Shown piece by piece: positions 47,370 through 50,300 of a DNA stretch of 64,000 bases. The notes below the pieces were generated by a model. The model was not told the DNA's origin and made no database searches. It saw nothing but the letters and a program-made list of their open reading frames with translations. The DNA is from an uncultured Gammaproteobacteria bacterium (GTDB taxonomy: Bacteria > Patescibacteriota > Microgenomatia > UBA1406 > HO2-37-13b): NCBI GenBank assembly GCA_964612595.1, contig CAZTFB010000001.1, forward strand, positions 67,058 to 131,057, read 5' to 3'. Position 1 is the first letter of the stretch, and each line of letters starts with the position of its first letter. Position numbers and translations under genes: made by a program.

Positions 47370-50300
47370 TTACTTAAAACGGGTGTAATTTTTGAGTGTT
47401 TTTGACCAATAACCAAGATCTACGATGTCATCTATCCAACTCATTTCCCCGAGAGTATCTAGCATTGTTACAGTTGCGTACTGATCCAATAACCAGATGT
47501 TATTTAGATCATCTGCATGAACAGCAAAAGTGACGAAATGCGCACCAATGCCTTCCTCACCTCTAAAGACATACATTGCCATTCTTGCCTCCCAATCAGG
47601 CATAGCATCAATAACTTGAGCTCCGAAACCTGCTCGATGGTAACATACGCCACATGGTCGAGTCGATGTAATTATTGCATCTAAATCACTTAACTTCCCA
47701 GCAGCTAATCGTGCTGTTGAGTGTGATTGATGATATGGAATATTATTCTCGATGGTTTTTCCAACTGCATTTAAGAGATCAGTTTTCGAAGCCCCTATTC
47801 TTTTTGCATATTCACTAAAGCTTTTTCCTATGGCCTCTGCAATGGAGGATGGTCGAGACATTACCACAGCTGCATCCATAATCATCATCCGCTCAAGATT
47901 TCTGCCCACCCCATTCAAATCACCTAATCTACCCCGTTCAATAAGTTCCTGCACCACTTCAACAGATTGGGCATACGGGCCAGAGGTTGTTAGTTCCAGA
48001 TCGGCAATTCGTGGATGCACAGGAAAACGTCCTCCGGGCAGTTTCACTGAGCCAAATGCCATCATGGGATTCACCATGCCCAATCCACCATCTAAAATCA
48101 TTTGTCTCCGAGCATCGTTTTTTGAAACATAGGTGTGTGTAGCCTCATTGATATAATCATAATTCCAACCCAATAATTTATTTCTTGCCCAGGCGTATGG
48201 CCATAACATTGGATTATATTGATCGGCCAGTGTCAACATGCTGAGAAGTCCTCCGGAGCCATTGTTTAACTTTCCAACCAAACATTTAAAATAATCAGTA
48301 GAACAGGGTAATGCTACATCTGGATAACCTTCTGTGCCAGGATATTTTGTACGGCATTCTTCTTCTGTTCTACAGACTATGGTATGACCCGAGGGGTCAT
48401 TGAAGGAAAGTGGATTATTGCTTGCATAAAAATATCGGTTGAGATCATCATTTGAATCTGGTTGAATAAACACGCCTGTTTGAGGCGAGTAAAAACGAGC
48501 GCCAAAATTCATAACAGGTAGATTGCTGATAGTACGCTGGCCCGTAAACCCTTTGTCTGTTGGCGCTTTGATACTCTCTGTACCTGTTATCATAGGTGTG
48601 TTCGGAGGAGATACTGTCTCTACCGGTGATCCGTATGGAAAATAATCTGGTAACGATTTTATCACTCCTTCGCTATCAACAATAACACGCGTTGATGAAA
48701 GATAATCTTTTATCAAAAAATAAGTATTCGTTGTTCGGACGTTATTATCTGTGCCGGTATCATGTTGTGACGTTTCATGTAAAAATGTCACATGTGGACC
48801 AGCTGATAAATAGTGCCTCTTTGACAAGATTGCGCCGACTGTTTCCTCTTCATAATTGCCCCAGCGGTACAAAGCTGATTGCGGAGTTAAGGTTGCAAGT
48901 GTAGAAAGGGAAAATGAGGCGTGATTTCTTGTGTTATATTCCAGCTGCTTGGTCAAATCACCCCCTACATCATATCCAAAAATAAATTCACGATTTGAGG
49001 CTGTTGTATCTTGACAAATATCTGAAACGTTCCTTTTCTCCTTGATTCTTATTAACTGGTCTACGGTGTTGTAAAAATAACAAAATTTTGTATCATCGGT
49101 CAAACGTCCGAAATTGTCGTATTGAAATGTTGTATTTTTTCCTTGTCCCTTCTCAACGATGAAGGTCGGCATGGGTATACGTGACGGTTGAGGGGTGGTG
49201 AGAACTTGCGCCAGCAGTGTTGAATCAGAGATTGCAGTAGATTCCCCAAGTACTTCACTCGATGATACGATTACATCTTGTGCTGGGCACGTGGTACCAG
49301 ATGGTAAGACCAGTTTTGGTGCAAAATAGGGAAATGAGTTGTTATAGCAAATATTTTGAGTTGTTTGTTCATTTTTTTTTAGCAATCTTCCCCAAATATC
49401 TGAAGTAAAGGTAGTAGCATAACCTGCCGGATAGTTTGGGGGAGGGGTTGCTAATTCGCCATCCTGTGCGCTTATTTTTTTATCTACTCTTTTGATCTGT
49501 GAAAGATCATCATATTCTAGTGTACTAGAATAAGTTAGGGAACCGGTTATTGACGAAATATCACCAATCGTTGATTGGAGTAGATTCTCCCTTGGTGAGG
49601 GAGTTGTCGGCTTCTCGAACGTTGCTATATTCTCAGTGATTGTTGTAACTTCTCCAAATGAATTGTATTGCAACAATTGTCCGAACAGATCTTTATCATC
49701 ATTCCCCACGGTGATTCCGATGCGGTGGAGTCGTTGTGATGGGTCATAATATGTGTTGTCTGTTATGGTGGTAACGCCTAGTTGCGTTGTGGTTTTGACA
49801 TTCAAAGCATTTTTGTTGAAGTGTGAGTTAAGGGTGAATTGCGTTTTCTCACCATTTTTTTCTATCCATTGACTCTGCAATCCTCCATGATCAGCATATC
49901 CGAATGAAAGTTTGAGATTATCTGGCATGAGAATGTCTGCTGTTTTCTCAAGTGTATTGTAATGTGTCTCGCTTGTTCGAGCTTGCTCTTTATTAAACTG
50001 ATCTATCACAACATTGGTGACTTTTTCTACATTGCCGGATTGATTATAGGAAAACTCAACTCTTCCATCTGTGTTCTGAGACCTGGCTATCTTACCCAAT
50101 CCAAATGGTTCAGAATCATATTCATAGCGAAACATAGCATCTTTCGTTTGACTATCTTTTGAGCTAACTTCCTGCTCCAGAACCCTTCCCAACATATCAT
50201 ATTGATAATAAGTTGTTATTGTCTGACTTCCCGATCCGATACCCCTCATGCTCTTTTCTTTTGTATGACCCCTCACATAATAAACGTAATTAGTCGTGCC

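Follow-up and report, generated by a model that had tools for sequence, protein, structure and literature searches.

A 64,000-nucleotide stretch of contig CAZTFB010000001.1 (the window, to whose positions all coordinates refer) carries on its minus strand, at 47370..54635, the gene for a giant RHS/YD-repeat protein, and the question that this locus raises is what the last 337 residues of the protein do. An earlier note, made from the sequence alone, had read this C-terminal tip as a papain- or transglutaminase-like enzyme with a Cys-His-Asp triad. We found that the tip is a real coding sequence under purifying selection and very probably the cargo toxin domain of an RHS polymorphic toxin. The framing of the segment as an RHS tip therefore held, and the Cys-His-Asp enzyme drew no positive support from any test that was run. 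The papain/transglutaminase-like reading is at present an unsupported lead, and a zinc-site reading of the same cysteines is about as good.

The gene is a single open reading frame (ORF) of 2421 codons plus a stop codon, recognized from the ORF list, its translation and matches to PF05593 and TIGR03696. RHS_repeat PF05593 matched the full protein (E = 1.9e-09) as well as segments within residues ~1300-2090, and an NCBIfam scan added a weak match to TIGR01643. The Rhs-associated core (residues 2013-2084; 48384..48599, minus strand; TIGR03696, E = 1.1e-14) ends in P2075-LSFN-D2080-PSG-H2084, so that the PxxxxDPxG[LWH] motif is intact and both autoprotease aspartates are present. The putative catalytic pair, designated from motif positions and the RhsA precedent, consists of D2080 (48396-48398, minus strand) and D2060 (48456-48458, minus strand), 20 residues upstream. 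In RhsA of P. protegens, D1324 and D1346, 22 residues apart, form the autoprotease dyad, and the protein is cut at W1350, four residues past the second Asp (PMC8765631). By analogy with this precedent a cut is expected between H2084 and T2085, and we infer that the RHS protein cleaves itself after H2084. The tip boundary in the earlier note was correct because the segment directly follows this motif: DPSGH occupies residues 2080-2084, and 47373..48383 on the minus strand, which the earlier note had not named, codes exactly for the next 337 residues (2085-2421). Near the N-terminus, a hydrophobic stretch at residues 52-70 (AFYVFVITITLFISLAFTF; 54426..54482, minus strand; Kyte-Doolittle 19-residue maximum 2.26) is a predicted signal-anchor and suggests Sec export of the protein with a membrane anchor. 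Against the proposed explanation stands that residues 1 to ~1300 had zero matches and that no delivery machinery was identified. The shell is highly divergent, with no relative found by phmmer among PDB sequences, and the window holds neither a second RHS copy nor a displaced orphan tip.

The tip itself is a sequence orphan with an in-frame coding signal. Fifty-three related RHS proteins aligned with ours only across the ~115-residue core, and a search of the tip against their tips, taken as a 53-sequence database, showed no similarity. Tips that are unrelated among core-sharing relatives are what a polymorphic toxin would be expected to show. In hmmscan runs with the complete tip as query, and for Pfam also with seven sub-segments (E ≤ 10), neither Pfam nor NCBIfam, PHROGs or PADLOC returned anything believable, the best matches all covering short stretches (E = 0.039 in PADLOC, 0.11 in Pfam and 0.28 in PHROGs). 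A phmmer search against PDB sequences gave a single 20-residue chance match (E = 1.7). The statement that the tip bears no nameable toxin motif was thus borne out, with no named toxin family in Pfam, NCBIfam, PHROGs, PADLOC or the PDB sequences. A word-indexed search of 5.8 billion clustered proteins (E ≤ 0.01, then E ≤ 10) and an exhaustive phmmer search of 1.84 billion representatives both recovered nothing but one 289-residue piece of this very protein. No relative of the tip turned up in genome, metagenome or viral contigs, and tblastn against plasmids and phages produced only a chance match (E = 0.5). AlphaFold2 run without an alignment reached a predicted local distance difference test (pLDDT) score of 33.7 for the whole tip and 31.9 for its last 138 residues, and Foldseek comparison of both low-confidence models (pLDDT 32-34) with the PDB gave no match at E ≤ 0.001, only noise.

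A segment of this kind could also be a decaying or accidental read-through, devoid of function, that arose from the rearrangement that truncated a neighbouring recombinase gene. A large serine recombinase pseudogene, 5′-truncated and frameshifted, does lie directly downstream of the RHS stop codon, ~140-170 nt away (46441..47230, minus strand; Zn_ribbon_recom PF13408 and phrog_95 integrase matches on 46711-47121), and the failure to find homologues of the tip in the collections searched or an immunity gene in the locus would also fit such an origin. However, the codon-usage log-likelihood ratio in the RHS frame reached +0.24 per codon over the final 100 codons, matching the shell (+0.22), and it was negative in the other two frames. 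Strain variation also argued against read-through. A Logan contig (L081 from SRR24315803) was 99.36% identical to the window over 47335-48266, and its five coding differences, at residues 2290, 2332, 2335, 2377 and 2404, were all synonymous third-position changes (P = 6e-4 to 2e-3, given that 22-30% of possible changes are synonymous). Four of these five fell in or just beside the Cys/His cluster stretch at 47484..47732 that is considered below. In addition, the identical 2421-residue protein was present in two further sequencing runs and in one NCBI contig of 495,732 nt, and no recombinase similarity was detected in the tip, for which the RHS frame was covered in full and the other frames over the ~50 nt nearest the stop codon. 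The codon signal, the synonymous-only differences and the identical protein elsewhere together make a decaying read-through artefact unlikely, and we consider this origin highly improbable.

Three further observations concern the same stretch. L081 overlaps the window by 932 nt, and all six of its nucleotide differences fell within the final 420 nt (47349-47766). The four differences of another contig (L082) all preceded the RHS start, within 576 nt of it (54656-55231), with zero in the 7.3-kb RHS gene; such clustering possibly reflects short recombination tracts. An antisense ORF of 126 codons on the plus strand within the tip (47752-48132) had codon statistics of +0.13 per codon and no family match, and most probably shadows the true frame instead of being an immunity gene. 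Among the Foldseek matches were recombinase structures (4kis, 6dnw and 9ter; probability ≤ 0.06). An identity of the tip as a large serine recombinase was rejected, these matches being noise, the frames covered above showing no recombinase similarity and the coding signal being confined to the RHS frame. The appearance of recombinase-like noise beside a recombinase pseudogene is curious, and no sequence test supported it.

The only candidate catalytic or metal site of the tip is a cluster of cysteines and histidines in its C-terminal module, at 47484..47732 on the minus strand, comprising H2302, H2305, P-C2328-G-V-C2331, H2333, H2366, H2373 and D2384. The strings on which the enzyme reading had been built (STRPCGVCYHRAGFGAQVI, GIGAHFVTFAVH, NIWLLDQY and CRTEEEC..C..C) are all present in the tip, as are the three residues of the proposed triad: C2328 (47652-47654), H2366 (47538-47540) and D2384 (47484-47486), all on the minus strand. 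The spacings of 38 and 18 given for them were position differences, which in the usual notation correspond to C-x37-H-x17-D. The comparator chosen in the earlier note, a transglutaminase-like protein encoded in the same window at 61311..63119, had been assigned C-x44-H-x18-D, which was wrong: its residues are C355, H398 and D415, with differences of 43 and 17. The ordered triad of the tip does fall within the transglutaminase range, and what failed was the power of this spacing to discriminate. Among the 337 residues of the tip are 6 Cys, 7 His and 21 Asp, and in 20,000 composition-preserving shuffles of its sequence the pattern C-x30-60-H-x10-25-D occurred in 83%, and the narrow pattern C-x34-48-H-x15-21-D in 40%. 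The real tip holds eight such triads, six of which are permutations of C2328/C2331, H2366/H2373 and D2384/D2393. A pattern that arises in 40-83% of shuffles gives the papain-like spacing no evidential weight.

The shuffling result was one of several that weigh against a Cys-His-Asp enzyme. Papain-clan Pfam families, including Transglut_core, C39, NLPC_P60 and Tox-PLDMTX, were absent at E ≤ 1 from the whole tip and even at E ≤ 10 from the seven sub-segments, and BLASTP of the tip against the in-window transglutaminase-like protein found nothing. We built a transglutaminase-core alignment of five sequences (the in-window protein, its relative L084, 6g49, 9crn and mouse PNGase 2f4m, the structures having been found through PDB searches). 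When this alignment was compared with the last 138 residues of the tip by hhalign, the probability was 0.34% (P = 0.18), and only 11 residues were aligned (RPCGVCYHRAG), with C2331 rather than C2328 placed on the catalytic Cys. When the corresponding hidden Markov model (HMM) was run with hmmsearch --max against the tip and 20,000 shuffled decoys, the tip scored 0.1 bits (empirical P = 0.18), and its reversed sequence scored equally. The local sequence also fits poorly: two glycines (GFG) follow the Cys at a place where papain-fold enzymes usually carry a long helix, and the Cys sits within a CxxC with an HxxH upstream, an arrangement more typical of a metal site. In the collections searched there were no homologues to show conservation of C2328, C2331, H2366 or D2384. 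Because the tip is without homologues, sequence tests of its fold are low in power.

Some features nevertheless favour a thiol enzyme. The ordered Cys-His-Asp falls within the range of transglutaminase folds (position differences of 27 and 17 in mouse PNGase, 43 and 17 in the in-window protein); the sole hhalign match places C2331 on the catalytic Cys; and both low-confidence models (pLDDT 32-34) form a β-hairpin at residues ~2349-2373 whose second strand carries H2366. The models show the Cys region as coil. Unlike most nucleases, the C-terminal module is acidic (isoelectric point, pI, 4.9-5.4). Transglutaminases and PNGase can be aligned by eye with G-V-C2331, with an A-R strand ~19 residues on, with H2366-F-V and with N-I-W-L-L-D2384. 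C2331 is slightly favoured over C2328 as the candidate nucleophile, and a thiol Cys-His enzyme (a hydrolase, deamidase or amidase) is, in our estimate, rather doubtful.

The transglutaminase cores of PF01841 proteins (the product of 61311..63119, Pseudomonas 6g49 and mouse PNGase 2f4m) share with the tip an ordered Cys, His and Asp, the family range of position differences being 27-43 and 17, and a by-eye likeness in G-x-C, the A-R strand, H-aromatic and W-x-x-D. They differ in that no significant profile or pairwise match connects them to the tip, which is Gly-rich at the place of the catalytic helix and has its Cys in a CxxC. Papain-fold toxins that act as deamidases, the PMT-C3/SseI type (Tox-PLDMTX), have Cys-His-Asp spacings of ~38-40 and 15; these are toxin effector domains with a Cys-to-His distance very near that of the tip, and their known members target eukaryotic G proteins. 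The tip had no believable match in Pfam, where PF15645 is presumably the model of this family. A resemblance to C39 peptidases had also been proposed. The local P-C-G-x-x-C and H-F-V elements on which it rested do exist, whereas a Pfam C39 match (the model being, we assume, PF03412) was absent from the tip and its sub-segments, and the Cys-to-His distance in C39 peptidases is roughly twice that of the tip. As for the transglutaminase-like gene in the window (61311-63119, minus strand), it matched PF01841 with E = 6e-13, and its product has, besides the triad C355/H398/D415, a signal-like segment at the N-terminus and a hydrophobic tail at the C-terminus; L084, from a Joint Genome Institute (JGI) metagenome, is a 66%-identical relative.

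The same cysteines may be metal ligands instead of nucleophiles. A PCxxC with an HxxH 23-26 residues upstream is the basis of this reading, in which H2302-x2-H2305 and C2328-x2-C2331 form a zinc site, either structural or the H+C+C of a divergent deaminase of the cytidine deaminase (CDA) fold whose helix-2 Glu was lost (HQS or HST in place of HxE). P-C-G-V-C is a textbook PCxxC, and the distance to the upstream His compares with 28 residues in DddA (sequence verified against 6u08). The segment past the CxxC (AMPDWEARMAMYVF) resembles LLPENAKMTVV of DddA by eye, and deaminases are established RHS tips, as in P0040 with PF14437. The deaminase toxins (DddA, SCP1.201-like and MafB19-like) thus share with the tip both the PCxxC with its upstream His and the occurrence at the end of RHS proteins. 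However, the tip has no HxE or CxE upstream, its histidines sitting in HQS and HST with no Glu, and loss of the Glu proton shuttle would leave a deaminase inactive. Deaminase families were absent from the Pfam and NCBIfam scans, and a profile of DddA, TOD6 and P0040 (MafB19-like) scored -0.9 bits on the tip, which is at chance level (empirical P = 0.26). The acidic pI is untypical of nucleic-acid enzymes, a weak argument. We consider a zinc or deaminase site unlikely. Since the targeted transglutaminase and deaminase profiles both performed at chance, the by-eye alignments with transglutaminases, PNGase and DddA stay leads only.

Two further cysteine pairs lie just past the expected cleavage site. 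C2088-x5-C2094 (48354..48374, minus strand) was recognized as a recurrent linker hairpin by comparison with the 53 RHS relatives. The second pair, C2111-x6-C2118 (48282..48305, minus strand), is visible in the sequence itself. A C-x3-10-C opens the tips of 22 of the 53 related proteins (including P0003, P0004, P0006 and P0007), compared with 2% at control positions. The Cys-rich stretch CRTEEEC..C..C singled out in the earlier note is present, and its first pair, recurring in those 22 relatives, is therefore not specific to this tip. C2088-x5-C2094 is apparently a linker element of the RHS clade, conserved as a post-cleavage hairpin or disulfide. We know of no earlier description of a C-x3-10-C element right after the DPxGH cleavage motif.

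With both motif readings at chance level, the fold and activity of the tip may be unrelated to either, the Cys and His being incidental. The tip could then be a helical domain that targets lipids or the envelope, a binding domain or another non-enzymatic module. Approximately 200 of its 337 residues were predicted to be helical in the low-confidence AlphaFold model, the absence of any relative in the collections searched would fit a new family, and in surveys of polymorphic toxins nucleases and other enzymes that use no thiol account for many of the tips. On the other side, the sole Cys/His cluster coincides with the synonymous-only region, a coincidence that would hold equally for any functional module. 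A membrane pore-former was tried and rejected: the Kyte-Doolittle 19-residue maximum of the tip is 1.14, and the lack of a transmembrane-grade hydrophobic segment means that it is not a classical pore former. We give a fold outside both motif readings somewhat less than an even chance.

The surroundings of the gene bear on the toxin reading as well. The RHS gene lies in a variable island of 11.3 kb (44146-55559) flanked by tRNA-Leu(gag) (44146..44228) and tRNA-Val(tac) (55485..55559), both on the plus strand and both detected by ARAGORN and Rfam. RuvB, encoded 3 kb from the locus, is 90% identical to that of a Candidatus Woesebacteria metagenome-assembled genome (MAG) and 86% identical to that of Microgenomates OLB23, indicating that the host, a Microgenomates bacterium, belongs to the Candidate Phyla Radiation (CPR)/Patescibacteria. 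Synteny with both the Woesebacteria MAG (L001) and OLB23 (L002) stops at tRNA-Leu. Only 1.8 kb separates these two tRNAs in OLB23, where the interval contains other small genes and neither the RHS gene nor the recombinase. The recombinase pseudogene has lost its catalytic N-terminal half, is frameshifted near 47115-47125 and, in a three-frame translation, has stop codons upstream of its KDPFYTGKF segment; its position against the RHS 3′ end points to an old junction, of a mobile element or a rearrangement, at ~47200-47370. No immunity gene was found in the canonical downstream position, where only the recombinase pseudogene and ORFs of ≤ 34 residues follow the RHS gene, and no ORF of the island matched an immunity family. 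Missing immunity genes have precedent in inter-species toxins (PMC12419801).

Two other elements of the island were noted. An ORF of 154 codons just upstream of the RHS gene (54932-55396, minus strand) encodes one hydrophobic segment and a Pro/Thr/Ser-rich tail, has no family match and is accompanied by the RHS gene in every contig that carries it. A 138-nt stretch (46162-46298; 4085-4222 in L002) is 80% identical to OLB23 amid an otherwise unalignable region. It had no Rfam match at E ≤ 1 and no convincing ORF, and could be a small RNA, the end of a small gene or an attachment-site remnant.

Among known systems, the protein belongs with the RHS/YD-repeat polymorphic toxins, of which Bacillus WapA is a further example. 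RhsA, a type VI secretion system (T6SS) protein of P. protegens (PMC8765631), and the Tc-toxin protein TcC resemble it in their RHS repeats, in a core that ends in PxxxxDPxG[LWH] with two Asp and in a hypervariable tip. In contrast to RhsA, TcC and WapA, our protein has no recognized PAAR/VgrG, TcA or wall-binding module and has an N-terminal signal-anchor instead; it also has no downstream immunity gene, and it is encoded by a CPR host. Its shell of ~2084 residues is much longer than that of RhsA. Another parallel is found in the Saccharibacterium 'T. rhizospherense', in which a 2487-residue RHS/YD protein was read as a secreted polymorphic toxin (PMC6031116). The two proteins, likened here by description and not by sequence, share a giant RHS size (~2400-2500 residues) and a CPR genome, whereas the PA14 and galactose-binding domains and the neighbouring immunity gene reported for 'T. 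rhizospherense' (PMC6031116) were not found in our protein and island.

From these comparisons we propose the following mechanism. The tip would be packed unfolded within the RHS shell and severed after H2084 by the aspartyl autoprotease, both steps following the RhsA and TcC precedent. It would then, again on that precedent, be freed into or onto a neighbouring cell touched by the exported, surface-anchored RHS protein. The episymbiotic lifestyle of CPR bacteria and the lack of an immunity gene, as in the toxins cited above, make the target probably another species, either a host or a competitor, and not kin. For the chemistry we can offer a guess: the last ~130 residues may form a small α/β catalytic module in which a thiol nucleophile of PCGVC is assisted by H2366, located in the hairpin's second strand, and perhaps by D2384, and the preceding ~200 mostly helical residues and the Cys-pair linker may serve packing or translocation. 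This chain of explanation, taken in full and including the thiol chemistry, is somewhat unlikely to be correct as it stands.

As an RHS polymorphic toxin the system belongs to a known kind, in which uncharacterized tips are common. It is unusual in that the tip lacks relatives completely, that the host is a CPR bacterium and that an immunity gene is missing. A tentative proposal, which we would not yet expect to hold, is that the tip is the first and, to date, sole known representative of a toxin domain family that is new and confined to a Microgenomates lineage, and that a CPR episymbiont uses it without an immunity partner against its host or against a competitor from a different species. 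RHS shells serve as general-purpose packages for delivery, and new enzymes have already come from their tips, DddA-type deaminases and new NADases among them. An orphan tip in an ultra-small episymbiont, with no immunity gene beside it and no relative in ~15 billion predicted proteins, could turn out to have a new toxin fold, and it could help to explain how members of the CPR attack their hosts or manipulate them.

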